Assembly (NCBI GenBank): GCA_001816585.1
Contig: MHCJ01000003.1
Coordinates: 11,013 to 75,012 of the forward strand
Direction: 5' to 3'
Length of the DNA stretch: 64,000 nt
Source: Candidatus Chisholmbacteria bacterium RIFCSPHIGHO2_01_FULL_52_32
Lineage (GTDB): Bacteria; Patescibacteriota; Microgenomatia; UBA1400; Chisholmbacteraceae
Shown here: positions 7,532 through 51,858 of the stretch, piece after piece
Layout: every line of letters starts with the position of its first letter
Numbering within the stretch: the first letter of the stretch is position 1
Program-made: the position numbers and the translations under genes
Notes under the pieces: generated by a model
What the model was told of the DNA's origin: nothing
What the model saw: the letters and a program-made list of their open reading frames with translations, nothing else
Database searches by the model: none

Positions 7532-7533
7532 TG

Positions 7534-7605
7534 TGGACCGTAGCGGGATCGAACCGCTGACCTTTTGCATGCCATGCAAACGCTCTACCAGCTGAGCTAA
7601 CGGCC
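7534..7605 (-). tRNA. tRNA-Ala (anticodon GGC)
   Basis: The reverse complement GGGCCGTTAGCTCAGCTGGTAGAGCGTTTGCATGGCATGCAAAAGGTCAGCGGTTCGATCCCGCTACGGTCCA folds as a cloverleaf. It has the G3:U70 alanine identity pair and anticodon loop AT-GGC-AT. Confidence 0.8.
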
Positions 7606-7682
7606 CTGGTGGACCTAGCCGGACTCGAACCGGCCACCTCACCCATGCGAAGGGTGCGCTCTACCAGATGAGCTATAGGCCC
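7606..7682 (-). tRNA. tRNA-Ala (anticodon CGC), CCA encoded
   Basis: The reverse complement GGGCCTATAGCTCATCTGGTAGAGCGCACCCTTCGCATGGGTGAGGTGGCCGGTTCGAGTCCGGCTAGGTCCACCA has G3:U70 and anticodon loop TT-CGC-AT. Confidence 0.8.
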
Positions 7683-12181: not shown

Positions 12182-12287
12182 GAGTTTTTGGGAAGTTTGT
12201 CGAATATTACATAGCATTTCATACAAAAGCCCAAGAATTTTATTGTTTGCACGGTAAAGCTTTTTCTGTTCTTGTTGCATTATTTTG

Positions 12288-13571
12288 ATGTACTTTAATC
12301 GTTTATTATTGCTATTGATACCTCTTGTACTGGTTTGGGTTTTCCGCGTGTTTTTGATGACTCGGAACGCAGAGCGCTATCCCGATCGATCACCGGTCCG
12401 CGTTCGCGGGAGGGTGTCTTCCCAACCATATCAATATAAATCAAAGCAGATCATGGAGGTGGGGATGATTTTGGTCTATACTACGCCTTTTCCCCAGTAC
12501 TCCTATGGTGATTTCGTGGACTTGTCTGGCAGCCTCAGAAGGGAAGTGACAGGCTTCGGTAAACCAAAAATGAGTCTGATGTATCCAACAATTCGCGTTG
12601 TTGATAAAGAAGAGTTCGGGGGTGGTTTTGGTCTTATCTCCCTGCAGGCTTGGCTGAGCCGCTTGCGGAGTCGGATCCACCAGAATTTCTCAAGTTTTTT
12701 ACCGGAGCCCCAAGCCTCGCTCCTATCCGGAGTCGTGTTGGGCGCTAAAGGACGGATTCCGGATGATTTTCTGACTGCCCTTCGACGGACAGGGACGATC
12801 CATGTGGTGGTGGCCTCGGGGTATAACGTAACCATGGTTGCCGGACTTCTGTCTGCTCTTTTTTTACGGTTTCTTTCGCGTCGTTTGGCGATTCCCTGCG
12901 TGATTGTGGGGATCGCCCTCTACGCGATGCTGGCAGGCGCTGATTCACCCATTATCCGGGCCTCCATCATGGGAAGCTTGGCTTTTATCGCCCAGTATTT
13001 CGGGCGACAGTACTTGGCGGTCTGGGGGCTTGTTGCCGCATCCCTGTTGATGCTTGTGGTTTCCCCTTTCGCGTTGTTTGACGTCGGATTTGAACTTTCG
13101 GTTGCGGCGACGGCCGGAATTTTATTGGTTTCTCCGGCGATCTTGGGTTTACTAGGACGGGTCCGGTGGTTCGGTTATATTGCCGAGGAATTAGCGGTTA
13201 CCCTCGGAGCGCAACTGGCTGTTTTACCGATTCTCCTTATCTACTTCCGTCAAGCGAGTTGGCTTTCGTGGTTGGTCAACCTTTTGACGGTTCCGCTTAT
13301 CCCATTTCTCATGGTTCTTGGAGGTGTGGTGGCTGTCACAAGCTTGGTATGGCAGGAACTTGCCTTTGTGGGCGCTCTTTTATCCTGGGTGCCGTTGACC
13401 GTTTTTGTCAGTGTGGTTTCTTGGTTTGACCGGCTGCCTTTCGGGGTGTTTCAGATTTCTGCCCTCTCGTGGTGGTGGGCCATAGGTTACTATTTGGTGC
13501 TTGGCTATTTGGTTTGGCGTCAGTCTCAAAAAGGGAGGTTGACACGGGAAGACAGGCGTTTCGTCTCTTGA
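12288..13571 (+). CDS. comEC: ComEC/Rec2 DNA internalisation channel, N-terminal and transmembrane part (apparently split from the following ORF)
   Basis: Polytopic competence-domain TM region. Ends at 13571 and overlaps the next ORF, which is in another frame. Confidence 0.7.
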   Translation: MYFNRLLLLLIPLVLVWVFRVFLMTRNAERYPDRSPVRVRGRVSSQPYQYKSKQIMEVGMILVYTTPFPQYSYGDFVDLSGSLRREVTGFGKPKMSLMYPTIRVVDKEEFGGGFGLISLQAWLSRLRSRIHQNFSSFLPEPQASLLSGVVLGAKGRIPDDFLTALRRTGTIHVVVASGYNVTMVAGLLSALFLRFLSRRLAIPCVIVGIALYAMLAGADSPIIRASIMGSLAFIAQYFGRQYLAVWGLVAASLLMLVVSPFALFDVGFELSVAATAGILLVSPAILGLLGRVRWFGYIAEELAVTLGAQLAVLPILLIYFRQASWLSWLVNLLTVPLIPFLMVLGGVVAVTSLVWQELAFVGALLSWVPLTVFVSVVSWFDRLPFGVFQISALSWWWAIGYYLVLGYLVWRQSQKGRLTREDRRFVS

Positions 13572-14440
13572 GTTTGGGGTTTCTGATCGGTGTCGGACTC
13601 GTCCTTGGCGTTGGCGCTTCTCTTCCTGACGGGCGGCTGCATATGGTGGTTTGCGATGTCGGTCAGGGCGACGCTATTCTTCTGACTTTCCGATCGAGAC
13701 AGATTCTCGTGGATGGGGGGCCGGATGACCGGGTGGTTGATTGTCTGTCACGGCATATGCCGTTTTGGGACCGGGCGCTTGAAGTAATCGTCCTGACGCA
13801 CCCCCAGGCGGATCATATGAATGGCCTGGTGGATGTGTTGAGGCGATACGATGTTTCGGAAGTGTTCTTGACCGGTGCAACCAATACAACGGATGGTTTT
13901 ATGGCTTTCAAAGCGGCAGTTTTGCAGGAGGGGGCAAGCTTGCACTTTGCCCGAAGGGGAGATGAAATCCGGCTTGAACCCCTGGCCCTGACAGTGGTAT
14001 GGCCGAAAGCGGCGATCGGAACTCTTGCTTCTTTTAGGAAGGAAGCAATTGACGCAGCGGTCCTCGGTGAAACAACCGCAACGGACGTGAATGAGACATC
14101 GGTCGTTCTTCTGGCACAGTTTGGGACGTTTCGGGCTCTGATGACTGGTGATATCGGGATTGATACCGAGCAAGCACTACTCCGTTCGGGAGCGCTAAAT
14201 CGCGTGGACGTCCTAAAAGTTGCGCACCACGGGTCTAAATACGCTACTTCTTCGGATTTTCTTAGTGTCATTCGACCTCAATTGGCTTTGATTTCGGCCG
14301 GAAAGAAGAACCGTTACGGACATCCGACTAGTGATACTTTGATGCGGTTAGATAGTGTTGGGGCAGAAATTCTACGGACCGATGAGCGAGGAGATATTGA
14401 AATCATGTCGAATGGAGAGGATTATTGGGTTTTGGAGTGA
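13469..14440 (+). CDS. comEC: ComEC C-terminal part: TM helix plus metallo-beta-lactamase domain (frameshifted continuation)
   Basis: HMVVCDVGQGDAILL, VLTHPQADHMNGL, VAHHGS match the ComEC MBL nuclease-like domain. It is in a different frame and overlaps the previous ORF by about 100 bp. The junction is somewhere in 13470-13570. Confidence 0.7.
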   Translation: MVVGHRLLFGAWLFGLASVSKREVDTGRQAFRLLSLGFLIGVGLVLGVGASLPDGRLHMVVCDVGQGDAILLTFRSRQILVDGGPDDRVVDCLSRHMPFWDRALEVIVLTHPQADHMNGLVDVLRRYDVSEVFLTGATNTTDGFMAFKAAVLQEGASLHFARRGDEIRLEPLALTVVWPKAAIGTLASFRKEAIDAAVLGETTATDVNETSVVLLAQFGTFRALMTGDIGIDTEQALLRSGALNRVDVLKVAHHGSKYATSSDFLSVIRPQLALISAGKKNRYGHPTSDTLMRLDSVGAEILRTDERGDIEIMSNGEDYWVLE

Positions 14441-14610: not shown

Positions 14611-16524
14611 ATGCTTGCAGAGGAGATCAAGGTTCAGGTTCAAAAGGCGCTCAAAGAGTTGGATTTTCCGGAGGTGCCGATTGTTATTGAGCATCCTAGT
14701 TCGGCAGAGCATGGGGACTATAGCTCGAATGTTGCGTTGCAACTTTTCGCTAAATCCGAAGCACGAAGCACGAAGCACGAAAAAACATCACAGCTCGCTA
14801 AGTATAAAACTCCTAGGGAAATCGCAAAGGCGATTGCTGACTATTTCGGATTTCGGATTTCGGATTTCGGATTTCTTCATAAAGTGGAGTTAGCGGGGCC
14901 GGGGTTTATCAATTTTTGGCTTTCCGAGCAGTTTTTGTCAGACACGCTTAAGCAGGCAATACATCTGGGAGACAGGTATGGGCAGAACGAAGCACTCAAA
15001 GGGAAAAAGATCATGGTGGAGTTTACCGATCCCAACCCGTTTAAAGAGTTTCACATTGGGCACCTGTACAGCAATGCGGTGGGGGAATCTTTGTCGCGAC
15101 TCTTGGATGCAAGTGGCGCCCAAGTAAAACGTGCGAACTACCAAGGAGATGTGGGGTTGCATGTCGCCAAGGCCCTTTATGGGCTCTTGGCGAAGTTAAA
15201 AGTTAAAAGTGAAAAGTTAAAAGTTAATGAGGAGAAGCTTAAGGAGCTTGAGAAGAAACAACTCGCAGAGCGGATCCGAATATTGGGTGAGGCGTATGCG
15301 GTGGGAGCTAAAGCCTATGAAGCGGATGAGAAAGCAAAAGCCCAGATCGAGGAGCTCAACCGAAAGATTTACGCACAGGAGCCGGATGTGATGGAGATAT
15401 ATGGGAAGGGCCGGGCCTGGAGTTTGGAGTACTTTGAGACGATTTACCGGCGGCTCGGAACCAAGTTTGATTTCTACTACTTCGAGTCGGAGGCGGGAAA
15501 AATCGGGCTTGAAGTGGTGAAGGGGGGCTTACGGAAAGGTGTTTTCGAAGAAAGCCAAGGGGCAATCGTTTTCTCCGGAGAAAAACACGGATTACATACG
15601 CGGGTCTTTGTCAACTCACAGGGTTTGCCAACCTATGAGGCAAAAGACTTGGGATTGGCGCCGACGAAATACAAGGATTTTCCCTATGACAAGTCCATCA
15701 TCATTACGGGTAATGAAGTTGATGCGTATTTCAGGGTGGTTTTGAAAGCACTGGCGCTTCTTTCCCCCGAGCTTGGGGAAAAGACGCAACATCTTTCCCA
15801 TGGGATGGTGCGGTTGCCAACAGGAAAGATGTCGAGCCGGACAGGTGAAGTGCTCACCGGCGAATGGCTCATCGATGAGGCGAAAAAGAGGATCTTGAGG
15901 ATAATGGAGCAGGGACCCTCCTTCGCAACTGCGACTTCGCGCAGACTGCCTGTTCGGCCGTTTCGCGAATCGGTTGCTTTGGAGGGTGATAAGCGCGATG
16001 GGGAAATTGTATCGCGCTTGTCAAAAGATGAGGTGGCGGAGATGGTTGGCATCGGGGCGGTCAAATATGCATTGCTTCGAGGGAGTATCGGACGGGATAT
16101 CATTTTTGACATTGATGAATCGGTGAACTTGGAAGGGAACAGCGGGCCGTACCTCCAATACACTTTTGCAAGATGCAAAAGTGTATTGGCAAAATCCGAA
16201 GCACGAAGCACGAAGCACGAAGCAGTTTCGAATTTCGATATTCGAGCTTCGAATTTGAATGCTGAGGATCTCAGCATTCTGCGTTGGTTGTATCGGTATC
16301 CGGAGGTGGTGGAGCAGGCAGTGAAGGGGTATGCACCATACTTGGTGTGTGCTTACCTCTATGGATTGGCGCAGCGATACAATGCCTTTTACAACAAACA
16401 CAGGATTGTTCAGACTAAGAAGGAAGAGGAGAGAAGGTTTCGTCTGATGATGACCAGTGCAATCGCCCAAATTCTTGAGAACGGACTTAAGCTCCTTGGT
16501 ATTGCAGCTCCGGAAACCATGTGA
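14611..16524 (+). CDS. argS: Arginyl-tRNA synthetase
   Basis: N-terminal Arg-tRNA-binding domain, HIGH-like FHIGHLYSNAVGESL, class I catalytic core, C-terminal DALR anticodon-binding domain. Four in-frame heptamer-repeat inserts. Confidence 0.92.
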   Translation: MLAEEIKVQVQKALKELDFPEVPIVIEHPSSAEHGDYSSNVALQLFAKSEARSTKHEKTSQLAKYKTPREIAKAIADYFGFRISDFGFLHKVELAGPGFINFWLSEQFLSDTLKQAIHLGDRYGQNEALKGKKIMVEFTDPNPFKEFHIGHLYSNAVGESLSRLLDASGAQVKRANYQGDVGLHVAKALYGLLAKLKVKSEKLKVNEEKLKELEKKQLAERIRILGEAYAVGAKAYEADEKAKAQIEELNRKIYAQEPDVMEIYGKGRAWSLEYFETIYRRLGTKFDFYYFESEAGKIGLEVVKGGLRKGVFEESQGAIVFSGEKHGLHTRVFVNSQGLPTYEAKDLGLAPTKYKDFPYDKSIIITGNEVDAYFRVVLKALALLSPELGEKTQHLSHGMVRLPTGKMSSRTGEVLTGEWLIDEAKKRILRIMEQGPSFATATSRRLPVRPFRESVALEGDKRDGEIVSRLSKDEVAEMVGIGAVKYALLRGSIGRDIIFDIDESVNLEGNSGPYLQYTFARCKSVLAKSEARSTKHEAVSNFDIRASNLNAEDLSILRWLYRYPEVVEQAVKGYAPYLVCAYLYGLAQRYNAFYNKHRIVQTKKEEERRFRLMMTSAIAQILENGLKLLGIAAPETM

Positions 16525-20930: not shown

Positions 20931-20965
20931 ATTTAAAGACCTTGAAAGGTCTGACCTTTCAAGGT
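20931..20965. repeat. REP palindrome doublet (ACCTTGAAAGGTCTGACCTTTCAAGGT)
   Basis: Perfect inverted 12-mers ACCTTGAAAGGT / ACCTTTCAAGGT. The same element recurs at about 21447-21475, 21660-21695, 29668-29703, 39463-39493 and 51815-51852. A variant CCTTTAAAGGAGNCTCCCTGCAAGG occurs at 10252-10285, 20355-20385, 36690-36720 and 51146-51180. Confidence 0.8.
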
Positions 20966-21651
20966 CGGTCGATGGTGAGACCTGGAAGGAATGGGTCCGG
21001 CGTTTCATCCTTGGTTTCCACGAACGATTCGTAGGAGGTAAAGTCGATACTCCCGATTCTTCTTCTCGATTTGAAAAAGGCGAGGATTTCTTTCGGCTGA
21101 ATCCATGCGGTCGTTCGCAGCCCAAGATACTCCGCGTAACTTGAGTAGGGATAGTCTTTGAGCGGTTTTTCCCAAAATTTCATTGGATTTTTGTGGATGT
21201 AGCGACTGAGGTGGAGGAACTGCTCGTTGGTTTCCACAAGTACGGCTTTATACACACTCTCAAATAATGATCCTAATCTTCCGTGTGTCTTGTTGAAGTG
21301 AACAGCATACCGAGTTGCTAGGGACTGCATGAATTGTTTCATCATATTTTTTGTCTGTTGCATTACCAGGAGATGGAAGTGATTTGGCATCAGGCAGTAC
21401 GCGAGCAGCTTGAGTTTCCCGGAACAATTCTTGGGTTGATGCGGTATACCTTGAAAGGTCGAACCTTTCAAGGTGAAGGATTGGACGAGGGCTTGTGGGT
21501 TTGGCGGGGGTGAGAGCGCTGTTTTTAGGATATTTAGGAAGACCTGATAATCTTTTTTGCCGACAAAAATAGATCGTTTCTCAACACCCCGATTGTAAAT
21601 ATGGTAGTACCCACCTTCGACATTGATCTTGCGGGTGTGCTTTCGAGGCAT
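20959..21651 (-). CDS. IS200/IS605-family Y1 (HUH) transposase homolog; REP-associated tyrosine transposase (RAYT)
   Basis: MPRKHTRKINVEGGYYHIYNRG ... LLAYCLMPNHFHLLVMQ (HuH motif) ... catalytic Tyr region. REP copies lie immediately upstream (21660-21695), inside the gene (21447-21475) and downstream (20931-20965). Confidence 0.8.
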   Translation of the reverse strand: MPRKHTRKINVEGGYYHIYNRGVEKRSIFVGKKDYQVFLNILKTALSPPPNPQALVQSFTLKGSTFQGIPHQPKNCSGKLKLLAYCLMPNHFHLLVMQQTKNMMKQFMQSLATRYAVHFNKTHGRLGSLFESVYKAVLVETNEQFLHLSRYIHKNPMKFWEKPLKDYPYSSYAEYLGLRTTAWIQPKEILAFFKSRRRIGSIDFTSYESFVETKDETPDPFLPGLTIDRP

Positions 21652-21699
21652 AATATTTATCCTACCTTGAAAGGTCTGACCTTTCAAGGTTGGTGTTTG

Positions 21700-23874
21700 T
21701 TACGCTTCTTTTATTGTTCTTGAGTATCTTTCGCGGGAGACGCGCAGGACTTTTTCCCGGTTTTGGTTCTTGGAGCGGGGTAAAGGCAGGGTAATGGCAG
21801 GGAAGGGAGCGGAGGTGGCGTTATCGATCGAGAGTTTGATGACGATTTGGTACTTACCGAGGCTCACCAGCTCTTCCTGGGTGTAAACCCCGCCAAATTC
21901 CTTCATCAGGTGCTCGGCGTCTTCGGCACCGACGAGGAAGCCTACCAAGGTTCCTGCATTGCCGAAGATTGCCTTTTCGAGCTCCTCGTTAAGCTGGGCG
22001 ATGTATTGGTTGGCAAGGATGAGGTCCAGGCGGTATTTGCGTGCTTCGGAGAGGATTTTAATGAAGCTCGTTGTCGCAAAGTTCTGGAACTCGTCCACGT
22101 AGAGGTAGAAGTCGCGGCGCTGTGCCTCCGGGATGTTTATCCGGTTCATCGCGGCAAGCTGCATCTTGGTGATGAACATGGCGCCAAGTAGGGCGGCATT
22201 GTCTTCGCCGAGTTTCCCTTGGGCGAGGTTGACGATCAAGATCTTTCCGCTGTTCATGAGTTCCTCTAGGTTCAACGAAGAATGCGGATGGCTGATGATT
22301 TCTCTGATGGTCGGGCTGGTGACGAATTGGCCGACTTTGTTGAGGATGGGCGAGATGGCTTCCGAGCGAAGCTTGGGGTTCATCTGCGCGTACTCCTTGG
22401 TCCAGAACGTTTTGAGGGCATCTTCAGGGAGCCGGTCCACGATTGACTGGCGGAAGCTGTCATCGGTGAGGATCCGTGGCACGTCGACTAGGGTTGAACC
22501 GGGCCGCTGGACTAAGGTGAGGATCGAGTTTCGCAGGATATACTCAAGGCGCGGCCCCCAGGAGTAGTAGTAGAGCTTATAGAAGATGGCAACGATCCCG
22601 GAGGCGACCAGCTCGGCGTGGGCGGGATCGTCGACCTCCAAGGGATTCATCCGGATGACGTGCTTTGTGTCTGAGGGATCAAAGTAGACGACGTCGTTTA
22701 ACCGTTTTGCGGGAATATAGTCAAGCAGTATGTCACAGAGGTCGCCGTGGGGGTCGATGATGGCCAGGCCCTCGTCGTTTCGCATGTCGGCGATTGCGAG
22801 GTTTGCAATCAGGGTTGATTTTCCGGTACCGGTTTTTCCGATGATGTAAATGTGCTTTCTTCGGTCAAGCCGCTTGATGCCGAAGATTTGCATGCGGTTT
22901 TTAAACTCGGTGCGGGCGATGAAGTTGATCTCCCGCTTTTCCTCGTCGGTAAGGTCAATGGCAATCGGTAAGTTCTCCGGCGGTTCGCCGAGGAGGTTTG
23001 AGCCCCAAGCGATGTTGCGGATTTTGGCGAGGGTTAGGTTGGGAAGGTGATATAGTGTGGCTAGTTCTGATATATTCAGATAGTGTTTTGCCGGTGTATT
23101 TGCAAATGTACGGGTGGTGATTGACCTTAGAAATTCCCGTCTGAAAAGGGTGGGGGTTTTGAGCCGGAGGCTGTTTCCCTCGCCGATGGTGAAACTGCCA
23201 TACGAGCCGGCGATGTGCTTCAGGAGCTCTTGGGAGCGGGTTTTGCTGTCGGAATCAGTTACGAGCTTGATGCCTACCCGGAAACCAACCTCCGAGATTT
23301 TTCTTTCAATCAGCTCTTTTTGGGGATGGGCCTTGGTTTCTCCGGGTTGGCCGCCGACGGCTGGCACTCCTTTTTCAACGGCGCTTGCTCCTTTTGATTG
23401 CCAATTTCCAGAGGCAGGAGCCACCAAATACTGGACAAGCATCAGGTCATCGGGCTGGGCTTTTGCCATGGTTCCGAGGATGGCTGCCAACGGATCCACG
23501 TCCGTGAATTCTTTATAGGTTTTGAGGGGAAAATACGATGCTTGCGAGAGTGTGAGCAGGCCGACTGAGGGATTTTTCCACTCGTTCGGAGGCGGTAGGT
23601 ATTCTTTTACGGGGGTGATGATGATTTTCGGAAAGGAAGCGGAGAGTTGGGATTCGAGGTAACCTTGGACGTCCTTCGGGGCAACGACATAAAAGTGGGT
23701 GACTTGATTGATGGTGGCGATTTCGAGTGAGATGGGCTCCGGAATACCGAGGAGCTGTTTTAGAAAGGGCGTACGAAGGTGGGGAAGGGCGGCGAGGAAT
23801 TGGGCGGCGGCTTCGGGGGTTTCTTCGCTGTCGCGGGGAGTACGCAGTTCAAGGATGACGCGATCGGCAGTCAT
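21700..23874 (-). CDS. TraD/VirD4/TrwB-like coupling-protein-type P-loop ATPase with an unknown ~350-aa N-terminal region
   Basis: Walker A IIGKTGTGKST, IDPHGD, Walker B-like FYLYVDEFQNF, C-terminal LILANQYIAQL, consistent with the TrwB_AAD_bind / FtsK-HerA superfamily. The start could be as far upstream as 23976. Confidence 0.6.
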   Translation of the reverse strand: MTADRVILELRTPRDSEETPEAAAQFLAALPHLRTPFLKQLLGIPEPISLEIATINQVTHFYVVAPKDVQGYLESQLSASFPKIIITPVKEYLPPPNEWKNPSVGLLTLSQASYFPLKTYKEFTDVDPLAAILGTMAKAQPDDLMLVQYLVAPASGNWQSKGASAVEKGVPAVGGQPGETKAHPQKELIERKISEVGFRVGIKLVTDSDSKTRSQELLKHIAGSYGSFTIGEGNSLRLKTPTLFRREFLRSITTRTFANTPAKHYLNISELATLYHLPNLTLAKIRNIAWGSNLLGEPPENLPIAIDLTDEEKREINFIARTEFKNRMQIFGIKRLDRRKHIYIIGKTGTGKSTLIANLAIADMRNDEGLAIIDPHGDLCDILLDYIPAKRLNDVVYFDPSDTKHVIRMNPLEVDDPAHAELVASGIVAIFYKLYYYSWGPRLEYILRNSILTLVQRPGSTLVDVPRILTDDSFRQSIVDRLPEDALKTFWTKEYAQMNPKLRSEAISPILNKVGQFVTSPTIREIISHPHSSLNLEELMNSGKILIVNLAQGKLGEDNAALLGAMFITKMQLAAMNRINIPEAQRRDFYLYVDEFQNFATTSFIKILSEARKYRLDLILANQYIAQLNEELEKAIFGNAGTLVGFLVGAEDAEHLMKEFGGVYTQEELVSLGKYQIVIKLSIDNATSAPFPAITLPLPRSKNQNREKVLRVSRERYSRTIKEA

Positions 23875-23884
23875 GAGGAAATCA

Positions 23885-24100
23885 TAGCATATTCGCCCCT
23901 TTCTTTGCTTGTCCAAAGAAAGGGGCGAAAGAAAGGACACCCCAGTGAACGATCTCTCGGGAACTCGTTCGCTCATCCTTCGTCATCAAACTCCTCGGGA
24001 TAAACCCTTCGTCGAACAGTCGATGACATTTCAGCGGTATTCGCTCACTTCGTTCTCGAGTAGCTCCGTTCAAAGGGGGGGAGCATTTTATGCTTGAAGA
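23885..24100. repeat. Approximately 200-bp repeat element, copy A (second copy at 60925-61140)
   Basis: Shared blocks with copy B: CTTGTCCAAAGARRGGGG, CCCCAGTGARCGWTCTYTCGRGA, CTCGARTAGCTCCGYTCAAAGGGG. Contains the hairpin CCCCTTTCTTTG-cttgtc-CAAAGAAAGGGG. Confidence 0.5.
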
Positions 24101-24127: not shown

Positions 24128-24199
24128 CGGAGCGTAGTTCACCGGTAGAACGCTCGGTTCGGGACCGAGAGGTACTGGGTTCAATTCCCAGCGCTCCGA
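24128..24199 (+). tRNA. tRNA-Pro (anticodon CGG)
   Basis: CGGAGCGTAGTTCACCGGTAGAACGCTCGGTTCGGGACCGAGAGGTACTGGGTTCAATTCCCAGCGCTCCGA. Cloverleaf with anticodon loop TT-CGG-GA. Confidence 0.8.
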
Positions 24200-24209
24200 C
24201 TCTTTCCAT

Positions 24210-24281
24210 GTCCCTGTAGCTCAACGGATAGAGCAGAGGTTTCCTAAACCTCCGATAGAGGTTCAATTCCTCTCAGGGACA
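24210..24281 (+). tRNA. tRNA-Arg (anticodon CCT)
   Basis: GTCCCTGTAGCTCAACGGATAGAGCAGAGGTTTCCTAAACCTCCGATAGAGGTTCAATTCCTCTCAGGGACA. Anticodon loop TT-CCT-AA. Confidence 0.8.
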
Positions 24282-24720
24282 CTGCTTGGATAGGGAAAAT
24301 ATCTCCTCGTGAACCTTCGGAATAGGGTTTGTGTTCATCGGCACGCTTCTCCTCTTTCGCTTTTTCGGTCTGGGCATGATGATAGACGTTCCAATCCTGC
24401 TCGCTCATATCTGCGTATCCCGGAGCCGAGGCGATGTTGGCCATGGTTCCCAGGGTCCTATCGCCGATCGGGCGGTAGAAGGCGCCGACAACGATCTCCA
24501 CTTCGCGCTCGAAAACGACGATTGTGGCGTTTAACTCATCGAACGTTTGCTCAATGCCTGGCACAATGAGGAGACCGAAGACGCCATATCCTTCGGTGTC
24601 TTCCCGAGCGTGGTCGCCTTCATGGCTCACCGGTTCGTCAATAACGTGGGAAGGAGTGTCCCTTTCTGCCGCAGCTCTGGCGAGGTCGCCTAAGTTTGAA
24701 CCGACAACTTCCGTGTGCAT
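24244..24720 (-). CDS. Hypothetical acidic protein; 3' end overlaps tRNA-Arg on the opposite strand
   Basis: 158-aa ORF with an ATG at 24720. No family recognised. The 37-bp antisense overlap with the tRNA argues for caution. Confidence 0.35.
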   Translation of the reverse strand: MHTEVVGSNLGDLARAAAERDTPSHVIDEPVSHEGDHAREDTEGYGVFGLLIVPGIEQTFDELNATIVVFEREVEIVVGAFYRPIGDRTLGTMANIASAPGYADMSEQDWNVYHHAQTEKAKEEKRADEHKPYSEGSRGDIFPIQAVSLRGIEPLSEV

Positions 24721-24853
24721 TTGGTCTCTTTTCTCACACCGTGTAAAGTCGGCAGGCAGCGTTGAAAATATAAATTGAGGTTCCTGCTGGGATTACGAAT
24801 CTAAAGATTGAGGATAGTCAGGAGCCAATCCGATAGATCACCTACAATTTAGG

Positions 24854-25288
24854 TTACGGTTGTGACAATGTTTCATCTTCAGCTGCGTTCGGCTTGAGCC
24901 TCTTGTCAATCTCGGAAATCAATTCATGAATTGCTGCAGTTTCGAGTTGACGTGTCTCTAGCAATTGTTGCAAGGTGAGTCCTTGGCTCTCTAGATTAGC
25001 TAGAGTCATCTTTAAGCGTTCTCCGTACTCCGAAGTTCTGTTTGATATCTTATCTGCAACAAGCGTTACCGCGAGTAACCTGATAACTGTACGTCTGTGT
25101 TCATCAGGGACACTTTCATTGAGCCACTCAAGCCTCTTGTCTTGGTCGATACGATCAAAAGCCATTTGTGCATAGGTTGTTACGAGACCCATGTCAGCCT
25201 CGTCCAGGCTGATATCTCCGACGACGCCAAGTATATCTTGAGCTATCTGAGAGAATTTGTCTTTCCTCAACGTTTCTTTATCTGGCAT
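24854..25288 (-). CDS. Hypothetical small acidic helical protein
   Basis: 144-aa ORF, ATG start, first of three tandem small acidic proteins on the minus strand. Confidence 0.4.
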   Translation of the reverse strand: MPDKETLRKDKFSQIAQDILGVVGDISLDEADMGLVTTYAQMAFDRIDQDKRLEWLNESVPDEHRRTVIRLLAVTLVADKISNRTSEYGERLKMTLANLESQGLTLQQLLETRQLETAAIHELISEIDKRLKPNAAEDETLSQP

Positions 25289-25407
25289 ATCGTTACATTT
25301 TCAATCTTTCTCAGCGATGGACATATTGTACCGCAAGAGTCAATGTTTTGTTCGGGATTGAGAGTTGGGGCTTACTGCACGTTGAGCTTTTATGTGGACT
25401 TTGCTTA

Positions 25408-25716
25408 TTATGGGCGTGCGTTTAAGTCTTTCGATCTCTGTTTTCGTTCCTCAAGCTCACTTTGCATTCCGTTCATCGCGGTGTCGAACTCTTGCATAAA
25501 CTGATCGAATTCATCTTGGGTTGCATACTCCGCAAGGAGGTGGATAACTGGGGGAAGTATAGATTGTAGTTTCGTGAGTAATTTGTCTGCTGCCGCAGTG
25601 TCAGAAGAAATGCCGAGTATCTCTCGTAATGTTTCATCTGGTTCAGCGCTGAGCGCGCGTTGCCGCTCGTGCCAGATCGAAGCTATTGGAACCGACTTCA
25701 ACTGCCCGCATGCCAC
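25408..25716 (-). CDS. Hypothetical small acidic protein (paralogous to 25818..26135)
   Basis: 102 aa with a GTG start. Shares the IWHERQRAL / EKWQAEARQRL-type segment and a conserved 5' leader motif with neighbouring genes. Confidence 0.4.
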   Translation of the reverse strand: MACGQLKSVPIASIWHERQRALSAEPDETLREILGISSDTAAADKLLTKLQSILPPVIHLLAEYATQDEFDQFMQEFDTAMNGMQSELEERKQRSKDLNARP

Positions 25717-25817
25717 TATTCTCTCACATCGTGTAAAGTGAGAAACTGCGTATCGTAGTCAGACTCAATGAAGCTTTGTACGGGTGGAGAGTTTCACGAA
25801 TGGGCAGAATGTAGCGC

Positions 25818-26135
25818 TTAGTGTTCTTGACCAAGATATGCATTGATTTCATCTAATCGTTGTCGTGCTTCTGCCTGCCATTTTTCAATCAAATCAAGAT
25901 CCTCAGTTTCCAGTTTACCCGCAGCATCCATTTGGGGAAGTATATTGTTTAATGCCGTCGTTATTGCGTTTATTGTGATCAAATACCGTTGGATCTCGTC
26001 CGGTATGTTGATTTGTAACCACCGCTCGACTTCGGCCTCATCTCTACCTTCCGCAAACATCTGGAGCAGTGTTGAGGCGAGCCTGTCTAATTCCTGAGGA
26101 TCGGAGATGATTCTTCCTGATTCCACGGTTGGCAT
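25818..26135 (-). CDS. Hypothetical small acidic protein
   Basis: 105 aa, ATG start. Confidence 0.4.
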   Translation of the reverse strand: MPTVESGRIISDPQELDRLASTLLQMFAEGRDEAEVERWLQINIPDEIQRYLITINAITTALNNILPQMDAAGKLETEDLDLIEKWQAEARQRLDEINAYLGQEH

Positions 26136-26531
26136 AAATGGTTAGCGCTAATACGTTCAAACAAACGCTCAGCTTAGTGGAATATTTTGTGGGGGAGGGG
26201 GTTCTAGGGACTGAGGGGACTCTTCTGATTGGTGTTGTCTCGTATCTGGAACATGTCCGGGGGCAGTGAGCATCCAAAGTAAGGTATGACCGAAGCCGCG
26301 CAAGGTTCTTCCGAGCTCCTGGTGGAAGTACATCCCGAGCGGTTCTTGTTTCTGATTCGAGCTTATATCCGACTGCGGTACTTCCTGGTGGTAATTAGGT
26401 TTCGGTTCCATGATCTGATCACTCGAGCGGAAAGCCCTTGAGGGGATTCCTCTGAGTATGAGATATACAGGGGAAGTATACCAGAGCGGTCAATTTAATT
26501 ATCTTGGAAGGAGGGGCCTTGGACGGGGGGG

Positions 26532-29580: not shown

Positions 29581-29735
29581 CGTTTTGATTCTGGCAAGAA
29601 GTGTTGTGGCTGTCAAGCATATCCGGATGAATCTTCGAGCGGAATCCTGAAAAGAAGCAGGATTACCAACCTTGAAAGGTCAAACCTTGCAAGGTTGGGT
29701 GGACAGAGGGTTTGGATGGTCTGTACAATGAAGCT

Positions 29736-39328: not shown

Positions 39329-40477
39329 ATGAATGTTGGCATTGACGCCTCAAGGGCATTTGTTTCAGAGCGAACCGGGACGGAGAAATACTCCTTAAAG
39401 CTTCTTGAGGCGTTGGGGAAGGTAGACGATAGGAATCGGTATATCATGTATACTCGTACCTTGAAAGGTCTGACCTTGCAAGGTGGGTCTGGTGGGCGGT
39501 TTGCTGTGCGGGAGATCGGGTGGCCGAGGCTGTGGACCCAAGGAGGCCTGGCCGCCCGCACGTGGGTTGACCGCTTAGATGTTCTTTTTATTCCGGCGCA
39601 CACCCTGCCGGTTCTGCGGCGGCCACGGCTTAAGACGGTCGTCACTATTCATGGGCTCGAGTATGAATATCTGCCGCAGTATTACCAGTTTCCCCAAAAA
39701 GTGTACCTCACGTGGTCCACACGCTATGCCGTGCGGTCTGCTACGCGACTGATTGCGGTTTCCCGCTTCACCGCTTCGGAGCTGGTTTCTCGGATGGGAG
39801 CTGATTCTTCAAAAATCCGTGTGATTCATGAAGGTGTTGATGCACTAGGTTATAGTAAATCATATAGCGATAATGTAAAGCATAGTGTTTTGGAGGGCTT
39901 TGGCGTTCGGAAACCCTACGTTCTGTTTGTCGGAGTGGTTCAGCCGAGGAAGAACCTTGTGCGGCTGGTTGAGGCGTTTTCGCTTACTGTGAACAGACTT
40001 TTGGGAGAAAGAAAGGGGTTTCCGGATCTTACCTTGGTCATTGCCGGAAAGCTTGGGTGGATGGTTGAGGAGACACTAAAGGCCCCGCAAAAGTTCGGGG
40101 TGGCGGATCGGGTGAAGTTTTTGGGCTTTGTGGAGGATAAGCATTTACCTTTTCTTATGCAGGAAGCGGAGCTTTTAGTGCAACCAAGCCTCACCGAGGG
40201 CTTTGGGTTACCGGTTTTAGAGGCAATGGCCGCCGGCACGCCGGTTGTGGCTGCTCGGGCGGGGGCATTGCCTGAGGTCTGCGGGGATGCAGCAATTCTC
40301 GTCGATCCTGTTGACGTTGTTAATATTGCAGATGGTCTGTTTCAAGGGCTGACTCACAAGGAGATGAGAAGAAGGCTGACGAAACTGGGTCTCGAGAGGG
40401 TGAAACAGTTTACTTGGGAAAAGGCGGCACAAAAGACACTTGAAGTGTTGGAAGAAGCGGTGGGGGAATCGAGGTAA
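39329..40477 (+). CDS. Glycosyltransferase family 1 (GT4-type, GT-B fold)
   Basis: The C-terminal EGFGLPVLEAMAAGTPVVA is the signature E-x7-E region of retaining GT4 enzymes. An in-frame REP palindrome at 39463-39493 encodes TLKGLTLQGG. Confidence 0.8.
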   Translation: MNVGIDASRAFVSERTGTEKYSLKLLEALGKVDDRNRYIMYTRTLKGLTLQGGSGGRFAVREIGWPRLWTQGGLAARTWVDRLDVLFIPAHTLPVLRRPRLKTVVTIHGLEYEYLPQYYQFPQKVYLTWSTRYAVRSATRLIAVSRFTASELVSRMGADSSKIRVIHEGVDALGYSKSYSDNVKHSVLEGFGVRKPYVLFVGVVQPRKNLVRLVEAFSLTVNRLLGERKGFPDLTLVIAGKLGWMVEETLKAPQKFGVADRVKFLGFVEDKHLPFLMQEAELLVQPSLTEGFGLPVLEAMAAGTPVVAARAGALPEVCGDAAILVDPVDVVNIADGLFQGLTHKEMRRRLTKLGLERVKQFTWEKAAQKTLEVLEEAVGESR

Positions 40478-51814: not shown

Positions 51815-51858
51815 GAGTTATCGACCTTGAAAGGTTCGACCTTACAAGGTGGGTTAGC
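51815..51858. repeat. REP palindrome with the GGTGGGTTAGCCGC tail (right copy)
   Basis: gaccttgaaaggttcgaccttacaaggtgggttagccgcggg. Confidence 0.7.

Follow-up and report, generated by a model that had tools for sequence, protein, structure and literature searches.

The window, i.e. the whole stretch of 64,000 nucleotides (64 kb) that was analysed, encodes on its minus strand the Microgenomatia-type ortholog of a Patescibacteria-wide chromosomal ATPase, previously counted among the 'VirD4-type T4CP homologues'. Its gene integrity, phyletic spread and genomic contexts are established, as is its domain architecture from sequence and a predicted structure. The protein consists of two modules, a ~300-aa DUF8128 domain and a TrwB/VirB4-like RecA-type motor with an all-α insert and a basic tail. 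What is new is the predicted VirB4-NTD-like fold of its 'unknown' N-terminal half; the rest is that of an ordinary member of a catalogued family. We propose, with a probability of about 0.5, that it serves the chromosomal T4SS as a soluble ATPase of coupling type.

Gene and domain architecture

The minus-strand ORF 21700..23976 consists of 758 codons without interruption, in which the four motifs picked out by an earlier note on this DNA (GKTGTGKST, IDPHGD, FYLYVDEFQNF and LILANQ) all read exactly as claimed. Although the gene extent given there (21700-23976) holds as an intact ORF, the start is probably at 23874. The ~120 listed close homologs are 717-730 aa long and align over just 95% of the 758-aa query, database entry P0001, which is 99% identical to the window protein, has 724 aa, and a promoter-like TGGACA-18-TATGCT (a consensus match only) lies at 23915-23886, within the putative 5′ extension. 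The true start is therefore most likely Met35 (ATG at 23874), yielding a 724-aa CDS (21700-23874). Residues of domains and motifs are numbered from this corrected start, Met35 of the original ORF.

21700..23874, minus strand: corrected CDS, DUF8128-type T4CP-like ATPase, 724 aa plus stop (homolog lengths, P0001, alignment)
23875..23976, minus strand: in-frame 5′ extension of 34 codons, probably untranslated (homologs begin at the Met35 equivalent)
22960..23874, minus strand: N-terminal domain, residues 1-305, DUF8128/PF26449 (β-α-β repeats, no TM helix)
22960..23091, minus strand: extended linker, residues 262-305, ELATLYHLP ... IRNIAWG ... GEPPENLPIA, highly conserved (57-homolog alignment)
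21775..22929, minus strand: RecA-like nucleotide-binding domain (NBD), residues 316-700, with the all-α insert inside
22813..22839, minus strand: Walker A/P-loop GKTGTGKST, residues 346-354 (aligns with the TrwB P-loop)
22252-22626, minus strand: all-α insert, residues 417-541 (helical block in the structure model)
22078..22110, minus strand: Walker B FYLYVDEFQNF, residues 589-599, with D594 and E595 (aligns with TrwB LWLFIDELASL)
22003..22050, minus strand: SEARKYR (R612, arginine-finger position) and LILANQY (Q623, sensor) (align with TrwB TKGRKAG and VAGLQS)
21703..21774, minus strand: basic C-terminal tail, residues 701-724, conserved, with helix NQNREKVLRVSRERYSRT (alignment and model)

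Alignment of 57 homologs revealed invariant residues in the linker (H276, P278, N287, W290, E297, P299, L302 and P303) and in Walker A (G346, K347, G349, G351, K352 and T354). Equally invariant are the Walker B residues D594/E595, R612 at the arginine-finger position with the adjacent K613, and the sensor Gln Q623 with N622; the aligned TrwB residues in TKGRKAG and VAGLQS are presumably its arginine finger and sensor, respectively. Judged by sequence, the catalytic residues are thus all intact, and the ATPase assignment, against which a missing Walker B or arginine finger had been named as evidence, stands. The linker's ELATL..HLP aligns with the segment ahead of Walker A in a Patescibacteria VirB4, and in Paceibacteria-type relatives (L062, L063, L065, L077, L081 and L083) the gene is present as two ORFs, with the break exactly past the linker motif. 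In the basic tail, N703, N705, K708, S713, E715, R716 and Y717 are invariant or near-invariant in the alignment, and residues 706-717 form a helix in the model; the tail is a candidate partner- or nucleic-acid-binding element.

A VirD4-like motor

The earlier identification of a TraD/VirD4-like ATPase of the FtsK-HerA superfamily was borne out by four Pfam models, all scoring above their gathering cut-offs: TrwB_AAD_bind (40.4 bits, cut-off 20.5), DUF87 (37.5), T4SS-DNA_transf (29.9) and TraG-D_C (26.8). When the family profile was searched against PDB sequences, TrwB was the sole match (E 2e-4). The RecA-like NBD, with its Walker A/B, arginine finger and sensor Gln, is common to the window protein and VirD4-type T4CPs (TrwB/TraD/TraG), and the all-α insert is shared with TrwB, of which 361 of 420 residues align. 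On the other hand, NCBIfam T4CP models for VirD4-type T4CPs (TrwB of R388, TraD, TraG and PcfC) score far under their cut-offs on the window protein, and no NCBIfam model exceeds its cut-off for this protein, its paralog, a Saccharimonadia ortholog or the Bacillus plasmid homologs. Whereas VirD4-type T4CPs have an N-terminal TM domain and are encoded with relaxase and/or mating-pair-formation genes, the window protein has instead the ~300-aa predicted VirB4-NTD-like domain, and its gene has neither kind of neighbor in the 64 kb. The evidence suggests that the DUF8128 family is not a canonical T4CP. A phage origin was considered and rejected, with just three partial matches among 2.9 million viral contigs (IMG/VR).

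A predicted VirB4-like N-terminal domain

The N-terminal ~350 aa had been described as matching nothing, which is true of the local Pfam, NCBIfam and PADLOC copies but not of current Pfam, in which PF26449 is DUF8128. The domain is therefore already catalogued rather than novel, as had been supposed. All 120 listed homologs, including P0001, display PF26449 followed by PF10412 and/or PF01935, and it is on this annotation of homologs, including the 99%-identical P0001, that the DUF8128 assignment of the window protein rests. At E ≤ 1e-3, the N-terminal domain is found in 1,370 clusters (50% identity); no PDB sequence matched it when the family profile served as query. In the structure model, it is composed of α/β (β-α-β) units that match the VirB4 NTD and not HerA, so DUF8128 is predicted to have a VirB4-N-terminal-domain-like fold.

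In VirB4, the N-terminal domain docks the ATPase on VirB3/VirB8 at the membrane. Although this type of N-terminal domain is, by predicted structure, shared by the window protein and VirB4 (TrwK of R388 and T. pseudethanolicus VirB4), the window protein can be told apart from VirB4. TIGR00929 scores 19.9 bits on it against a cut-off of 643.1, and AAA_10 and CagE_TrbE_VirB give no match. Genuine Patescibacteria VirB4 is a separate 633-aa gene in relatives, with profile similarity (E 2e-4) over 85 columns only, confined to the linker and P-loop, and when the family profile was set against that of the Patescibacteria TrsD/TraC-like protein, no similarity emerged. Moreover, VirB4 is encoded beside VirB3/PrgI in the apparatus cluster, whereas the window gene is not.

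No TM helix is predicted in the window protein, whose 19-residue Kyte-Doolittle maximum over the whole length is 1.16. Microgenomatia orthologs start directly at DUF8128 and lack an N-terminal membrane helix, so their recruitment must be via protein-protein contacts. Orthologs outside Microgenomatia are mostly membrane-anchored by an N-terminal helix, and those of Saccharimonadia have an N-terminal hydrophobic helix together with a C-terminal extension.

Phyletic spread and distance from T4SS genes

Full-length orthologs are present in at least 598 Patescibacteria species (Microgenomatia, Saccharimonadia, Gracilibacteria, Peregrinibacteria, Berkelbacteria, Moran- and Buchananbacteria), with 37-60% identity across classes. 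Orphan T4CPs in Patescibacteria are a phenomenon published earlier (PMC12102498, 2025). In that survey, VirD4-type homologs were found in 2,918 of 3,035 Patescibacteria genomes (96%) and VirB4 in 2,417, relaxases in just 103 of the 3,035, and only 148 of 5,713 T4CP homologs lay within 20 CDS of virB4. By rough estimate, this last proportion (~2.6%) is no more than expected from random placement in a ~900-gene genome. Table S3 of the same study includes genomes with a single t4cp1 match, hundreds of genes away from virB4/trsD. We dropped the idea of two DUF8128 copies per genome (5,713 matches in 2,918 genomes), because that count mixes t4cp1 and t4cp2 (TcpA-type) profiles (Table S3).

Among 85 related loci, T4SS genes adjoin the ortholog in only five, so homologs are not always embedded in conjugative T4SS clusters; had they been, this would have spoken against the original claim. 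These five loci, three of whose records are named Gottesmanbacteria, belong to one set of relatives that share 52-57% identity with the window protein; PrgI is followed by TraC-like/TrsD and then VirB4, beside dnaA, with the ortholog as divergent neighbor. No Replic_Relax-type relaxase is near the gene at any of the 85 loci. Distance from apparatus genes is the norm for this family.

The same applies to the window, where the earlier statement that no T4SS components are nearby holds for all 64 kb. When five T4SS-cluster proteins of the related genome L002 (PrgI, TraC-like/TrsD, VirB4 and two associated ones) were compared by phmmer with all window ORFs, there was no match, and Pfam scans of the large window ORFs identified solely housekeeping, competence and envelope genes. 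A suspected VirB4/PrgI cluster (a 637-aa ORF at 14611-16524 and a T-rich stretch at 12-14 kb) proved to be ArgRS and ComEC/MBL.

Local neighborhood

The ATPase gene adjoins a RAYT gene and tRNA genes at the positions originally reported. A Y1_Tnp/RAYT ORF (20959-21687, minus strand) lies on the same strand ~12 nt downstream, whereas tRNA-Pro (24128-24200) and tRNA-Arg (24210-24282) are on the plus strand. This adjacency is incidental; in the syntenic relative L001, the RAYT position is occupied by an inositol-phosphatase gene. RAYT is beside the ortholog in this window only, and one other locus has RAYT 7 kb off. Ten nt past the stop codon of the ATPase gene there is a hairpin.

21664..21690, no strand assigned: perfect hairpin, 27 nt, ACCTTGAAAGGTCTGACCTTTCAAGGT (stem-loop search)

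This hairpin is among the six REP-like copies that the window contains (none would be expected by chance) and belongs to the neighboring RAYT element, but may also serve as terminator hairpin for the ATPase gene.

Homologs on Bacillaceae plasmids

Small plasmids of Bacillaceae encode full-length homologs annotated as 'DUF87 domain-containing protein' (e.g. B. subtilis MH-1 WP_121549396.1 and Shouchella clausii ENTPro WP_248290882.1), with 95% coverage (query 4-691, including the DUF8128 region), 24-26% identity and E values of 1e-36 to 1e-41; the N-terminal part on its own gives E 1e-7. Like the window protein, they have no TM helix, but they have ~170 additional C-terminal residues and are plasmid-borne rather than chromosomal. 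Each opens a Tcp/ICEBs1-like conjugation operon in which the gene for a Replic_Relax relaxase comes immediately next, and then those for TcpC, TcpE and an AAA_10 VirB4-like ATPase; this order places the homolog in the coupling-protein slot. The T4CP of pLS20 itself was rejected as a family member, being a canonical 2-TM protein outside the DUF8128 family. Streptomyces and Halorubrum plasmid contexts were also inspected and were uninformative.

The probable ortholog in Southlakia

The sole relative with phenotype data is SEML1_0293 of Southlakia epibionticum ML1, a probable ortholog of 921 aa (compared with 724 aa for the window protein), whose gene comes immediately after a sigma-like one, the very arrangement of the Saccharimonadia loci compared here. 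Tn-seq classes SEML1_0293 as non-essential but the T4SS cluster as essential; comEC, like SEML1_0293, is dispensable for epibiotic growth. According to Wang et al., the Southlakia T4SS has no recognizable coupling protein. SEML1_0142, a probable paralog of SEML1_0293 with 1,019 aa, is essential; its residues 51-70 read as a putative TM helix, and it resembles a separate TM-anchored paralog clade.

Proposed role and alternative explanations

An MPF-FATA-type chromosomal T4SS apparatus is present in most Patescibacteria. The protein would most likely assemble into a ring ATPase, as do its structural relatives, and would dock peripherally, via its VirB4-like domain, on the cytoplasmic face of this monoderm-type (MPF-FATA) T4SS. 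ATP hydrolysis would then serve to recruit or feed a substrate, DNA or protein, in the role of a coupling protein. This reading draws on the intact catalytic residues, the T4CP-like Pfam scores and TrwB match, the place of the Bacillaceae homologs in the coupling-protein slot, the five loci with PrgI, TraC-like/TrsD and VirB4 beside the ortholog, the conservation in at least 598 species with housekeeping synteny, and the published survey of VirD4-type homologs. Several observations speak against a T4SS role, namely the contrast between non-essential SEML1_0293 and an essential T4SS cluster in a species whose T4SS has no recognizable coupling protein, the few T4CP homologs near virB4, the rarity of relaxases and the lack of a canonical T4CP membrane domain. 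The absence of VirB4, PrgI and TrsD genes from the 64-kb window is a further one.

Of the other roles that could be envisaged, it is unlikely, although worth weighing, that the protein is an exapted DNA motor independent of T4SS, which translocates or remodels DNA in the cytoplasm, e.g. in transformation with DprA and topoisomerase I, in recombination or in segregation. This would fit the conserved order dprA, topA, a gene for a Sigma70_r4+HARE-HTH protein and the ortholog in Saccharimonadia, the presence of TopA no more than ~6 kb away at 16 of the 85 loci (six of these, in Microgenomatia, are arranged differently) and of DprA at 10, and an HTH gene of the same orientation that lies immediately or almost immediately upstream at 16 loci, some of them in Saccharibacteria, Moranibacteria and Buchananbacteria records. 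Also compatible with it are the dispensability of both the ortholog and comEC for epibiotic growth in Southlakia and a weak NCBIfam match to CedD, an archaeal DNA-translocating ATPase, and exaptation of Patescibacteria T4CP homologs is left possible in PMC12102498. Yet TopA, DprA and HTH genes are all absent from the 64-kb window. Elsewhere, since dprA-topA adjacency is common across bacteria, their linkage to the ortholog may be inherited synteny. At none of the 85 loci is ComEC or ComEA encoded within 10 kb of the ortholog, and the earlier suggestion of DNA uptake together with these proteins finds no backing in gene context; their 7-kb distance in the window is incidental. Finally, the N-terminal domain resembles one that docks on a membrane complex and orthologs outside Microgenomatia are mostly anchored, so an envelope machine fits better than a cytoplasmic DNA enzyme.

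An anti-phage or anti-plasmid ATPase of the HerA/DptH/Mad8 kind, sensing or translocating foreign DNA, is much less probable still. HerA-type defence ATPases (HerA-NurA, SIR2-HerA, DUF4297-HerA, DptH/DndH and MADS Mad8) have an effector partner and a HAS-barrel, whereas the window protein has neither and its N-terminal domain is modelled as VirB4-like. No nuclease, SIR2, methyltransferase or other effector gene recurs as a neighbor in the 85 loci, PADLOC finds nothing in the flanking ORFs, and viral contigs yielded only the three partial matches mentioned above. Whereas mobile defence islands are patchy, this family is near-universal across the phylum, with housekeeping synteny and 37-60% cross-class identity, at odds with the HerA-like defence module once suggested. 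The least credible alternative is that the gene is part of a mobile element, either a relic of a conjugative element or a partner of RAYT, with the HUH nuclease acting as relaxase and REP hairpins as transfer origins. The same-strand RAYT ORF ~12 nt after the ATPase gene, the REP-like hairpins on its flanks and the Bacillaceae plasmid homolog directly preceding a relaxase would be in keeping with this. It is largely refuted by comparative context: RAYT is next to the ortholog in this window alone and is missing in the closest syntenic relative, no integrase, relaxase or T4SS genes are nearby, and the gene has conserved housekeeping synteny (NDK, M16 peptidase and ArgRS) with unremarkable GC content and GC skew.

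Implications

The coupling-type role for the chromosomal T4SS can be taken further, tentatively and with less confidence than the role itself. DUF8128 proteins may represent a third, hitherto unrecognised class of T4SS ATPase, a living VirB4/VirD4 intermediate that combines a VirB4-type N-terminal docking domain with a VirD4-type motor, all-α domain included, serving as coupling proteins in Tcp plasmids and domesticated in Patescibacteria as T4SS substrate receptor. If true, monoderm Tcp-type plasmids would use DUF8128 proteins as soluble or single-pass coupling proteins, and as domesticated core chromosomal genes these proteins would fill the vacant place of substrate receptor in the Patescibacteria T4SS. 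A set of Bacillaceae plasmids typed 'non-mobilizable' is also flagged, which have a complete conjugation operon with a DUF8128-type protein in the coupling slot. The predicted likeness to the VirB4 NTD bears on the divergence of VirB4 and VirD4 and leads to a testable hypothesis of docking with VirB3/PrgI-type partners. To our knowledge, no T4SS other than that of Patescibacteria (in Southlakia) has yet proved essential for its own bacterium to grow. With a chromosomal T4SS essential for the epibiotic life of the sole genetically tractable Patescibacterium, this near-universal ATPase family is an obvious candidate for its substrate receptor.

Reannotation of the ATPase gene and its motor half

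The ATPase ORF is unbroken (21700-23976, minus strand, 758 codons) and contains all the motifs quoted from it in the earlier note, which had also correctly placed it beside RAYT and tRNA genes. The CDS most likely starts at Met35, from which we number residues, because the nearest database homologs, some 120 with lengths of 717-730 aa, span just 95% of the 758-aa query, all N termini in a 57-sequence alignment line up with Met35, and a promoter-like TGGACA-18-TATGCT is located within the putative first 34 codons. The 99%-identical database entry has 724 aa.

Predicted ATPase CDS and immediate neighbours
21700-23874 (-), ATPase, 724 aa
20959-21687 (-), Y1_Tnp/RAYT-type ORF, directly downstream
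tRNA-Pro and tRNA-Arg genes, upstream, divergent

Residues 316-700 exceed the Pfam gathering thresholds of TrwB_AAD_bind, T4SS-DNA_transf, TraG-D_C and DUF87, and TrwB is the sole solved structure retrieved by sequence for the ATPase. Walker A (G346, K347, G349, G351, K352 and T354), IDPHG, Walker B (D594 and E595), R612/K613 and N622/Q623 are all invariant across 57 homologs and align with their TrwB counterparts. Walker B and the arginine finger, whose absence the earlier note would have taken as evidence against its assignment, are therefore both present. The gene is securely the Microgenomatia ortholog of a family of T4CP-like ATPases defined by an N-terminal DUF8128.

DUF8128 is predicted to resemble the VirB4 N-terminal domain

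Residues 1-305 have no match in our local copies of Pfam, NCBIfam and PADLOC. The region is not novel as had been thought, since the precomputed annotation of every homolog includes DUF8128 (PF26449). No paper found by our literature search mentions this domain. Only ∼30 residues of the N-terminal query that matched VirB4 come from the motor domain, so the match must be to the VirB4 N-terminal domain, which the DUF8128 region is predicted to resemble in fold. This domain is the part of VirB4 that contacts VirB3/VirB8 in R388 structures. Sequence similarity to Patescibacteria VirB4 is confined to the linker and P-loop, and none was detected between the family and the Patescibacteria TrsD protein.

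The extended linker between the two halves is strongly conserved (ELATL.HLP ... IKNIAWG ... GEPPENLPI in the 57-sequence alignment). Six Paceibacteria-type loci have two ORFs in place of the single gene, the break falling exactly behind this motif at the DUF8128/ATPase boundary (...SNLPI* / M..EITFFAKTNF...), which independently supports a two-module architecture. In several of these loci, the N-terminal ORF encodes a hydrophobic segment at its N terminus, with 19-residue hydropathy values of up to 2.2; in others the segment is weaker.

Split orthologs in Paceibacteria-type loci
L062 4241-7471
L063 9854-12808
L065 9821-13120
L077 9815-13141
L081 1829-5260
L083 9806-13192

In other classes, the orthologs are extended at the N terminus by 40-60 residues, which in most cases include a strongly hydrophobic helix. 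Microgenomatia orthologs, window copy included, begin directly at DUF8128, and the window ATPase has no hydrophobic segment able to span a membrane.

Distribution in Patescibacteria and on plasmids

A pattern scan in which each species was represented by one genome confirmed at least 598 relatives, the best 80 of which are full-length matches (37-60% identity) from Microgenomatia, Saccharimonadia, Gracilibacteria, Peregrinibacteria, Berkelbacteria, and Moran- and Buchananbacteria. The N-terminal domain alone retrieved 1,370 clusters at 50% identity. Many MAG records titled 'uncultured Gammaproteobacteria' or 'Pseudomonadales' (L006, L009, L010, L014, L015, L017, L020-L023 and others) encode full-length, 50-60%-identical orthologs, and L009 also has a Patescibacteria-type T4SS cluster; their record-title taxonomy therefore looks wrong.

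A separate clade consists of TM-anchored paralogs (∼820-866 aa), with one N-terminal helix followed by DUF8128 and the ATPase. The paralog is directly upstream of the ortholog or at most two genes away in four loci and ∼6 kb away in L083; the 64-kb window has none.

TM-anchored paralogs
L059 6778-9294
L060 5627-8191
L061 1217-3676
L073 1092-3584
L083 1374-3971

By tblastn, 413 plasmid records matched, 81 with at least 80% coverage; 334 of the 413 are typed non-mobilizable. Small Bacillaceae plasmids encode an 883-886-aa 'DUF87 domain-containing protein', with no TM helix, that matches residues 4-691 (24-26% identity, E 1e-36 to 1e-41). It heads a conjugation operon and is directly followed by a Replic_Relax relaxase, then TcpC, TcpE and an AAA_10 VirB4-like ATPase, and hence holds the coupling-protein slot. 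The T4CP of pLS20, in contrast, is a canonical 2-TM protein of a different family. Searches with only the N-terminal domain recover the Bacillaceae proteins at E 1e-7, along with a protein from a haloarchaeal plasmid. On Halorubrum salinarum pHAR01 (L092 8809-16032), a 2,407-aa protein annotated as T4SS DNA-binding opens with a region like DUF8128 that matches the N-terminal domain of the window ATPase at E 8e-5.

Plasmids with a DUF8128-type operon
L089, B. subtilis MH-1, NZ_CP032854.1
L090, Shouchella clausii, NZ_CP012476.1

Both plasmids also encode a 784-aa membrane protein in the conjugation-type operon. Despite a seemingly complete Tcp/ICEBs1-like operon, MOB-suite types them 'non-mobilizable'; from gene content, they are probably conjugative.

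Genomic context of the orthologs

VirB4, PrgI, TrsD, TopA and DprA are absent from the 64-kb window, which bears out the earlier view that no other T4SS components are nearby. Among 85 loci retrieved around relatives, a divergent PrgI, TraC-like/TrsD, VirB4 and M23-peptidase cluster neighbours the ortholog in five. These five belong to a single set of close relatives, of which three carry the name Gottesmanbacteria. In L002, the only one of these with called genes, the cluster adjoins dnaA and dnaN.

In Saccharimonadia loci, dprA, topA, a Sigma70_r4+HARE-HTH gene and the ortholog follow one another in conserved order. TopA is also close in six Microgenomatia loci, in a different arrangement. 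In 16 loci, Saccharibacteria, Moranibacteria and Buchananbacteria records among them, the HTH protein (∼350 aa, N-terminal Sigma70_r4-like HTH, C-terminal HARE-HTH) is encoded just upstream of the ortholog and in the same orientation.

Loci with the HTH gene upstream
Saccharimonadia-type: L064, L072, L075, L078, L080, L082, L084, L085
Also: L060, L062, L063, L065, L077, L081, L083

In Southlakia, too, the probable ortholog SEML1_0293 lies just downstream of a sigma-like gene; the counterpart of the HTH protein there is SEML1_0294, annotated 'RpoS' and essential (Wang et al. 2023, PMC10633639). SEML1_0293 is non-essential, with TrwB_AAD_bind at 402-719 and 360 N-terminal residues without structural assignment; the T4SS cluster, by contrast, cannot be lost and is described as one that 'lacks recognizable coupling and relaxase proteins' (PMC10633639). 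SEML1_0142, also essential, has a P-loop domain at 381-800 and a segment at residues 51-70 (PMC10633639), in our reading a TM helix, a layout that by residue ranges alone resembles the TM-anchored paralog.

Other features of the window

A 27-nt near-perfect hairpin, ACCTTGAAAGGTCTGACCTTTCAAGGT, occurs six times in the window, with none expected by chance. Two copies flank the RAYT ORF and one lies within its 5' extension, as is classic for REP-RAYT elements, here in a Patescibacterium. Translation of the RAYT probably starts downstream of 21448.

Hairpin copies
20939-20965
21448-21474
21664-21690
29669-29695
39458-39484
51824-51850

ComEC is represented by two overlapping ORFs in different frames, 12285-13571 (+) with the Competence domain (428 aa) and 13469-14440 (+) with the metallo-beta-lactamase domain (323 aa), which could reflect a frameshift, a sequencing error or a genuine split. 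Small ORFs of 144, 102 and 105 aa that follow one another at 24300-26450 (-) encode acidic, helical products and have no match in any library searched; GC is lower there (0.478), with a GC skew of 0.019 versus 0.13-0.21 in most of the remaining window. A 158-aa ORF (24244-24720) that overlaps tRNA-Arg may be spurious. Two tRNA-Ala genes (anticodons GGC and CGC, 7533-7682, minus strand) abut at 7606/7607 without a spacer.

Possible roles of the DUF8128-type ATPase

The role with most support, to which we give a probability of about 0.5, is that of a ring ATPase that would use its VirB4-like N-terminal domain to dock on the chromosomal MPF-FATA-type T4SS, serving there as a motor for coupling or substrate feeding. 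In Microgenomatia, the ATPase would be soluble and recruited through protein contacts. This reading is supported by homology to coupling-type ATPases, the coupling slot taken in Bacillaceae plasmids, T4SS adjacency in one group of close relatives and the predicted N-terminal fold. In a survey of 3,035 Patescibacteria genomes, VirB4 is found in 2,417 and T4CP homologs (5,713) in 2,918 (Quinonero-Coronel et al. 2025, PMC12102498). Many genomes have a single t4cp1 hit hundreds of genes from virB4/trsD (Table S3), and the authors allow exaptation as a possibility (PMC12102498). Against the coupling role, T4CP homologs show no enrichment around virB4, with only 148 of them near it. In addition, few Patescibacteria have relaxases and none is close to the gene, with neither Replic_Relax nor Tcp genes in the 85 loci, and the probable Southlakia ortholog is dispensable although the T4SS there is not.

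The main alternative, DNA handling independent of any T4SS, is suggested by the dprA-topA-HTH synteny; we consider it unlikely, though ahead of the others. Neither ComEA nor ComEC, which the earlier note proposed as partners, is encoded within 10 kb of the ortholog in any of the 85 loci. The defence role it also raised is poorly supported and quite improbable, and no nuclease or SIR2 partner recurs among these loci. A function tied to the RAYT or another mobile element, equally short of support, is less credible still. The closest large contig (72% identity) shares NDK, M16 peptidase and ArgRS with the window and has an inositol-phosphatase gene at the RAYT position, so the RAYT is a local insertion.

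Orphan VirD4-like ATPases in small-genome bacteria are a kind already published. Unreported in the literature we found are the predicted resemblance of DUF8128 to the VirB4 N-terminal domain, the absence through loss of a membrane helix from Microgenomatia orthologs, the gene split into two ORFs and the plasmid-borne relatives adjoining a relaxase. These points rest on predicted structure and context, and on their account the DUF8128 family is of modest interest as a target for T4SS specialists.
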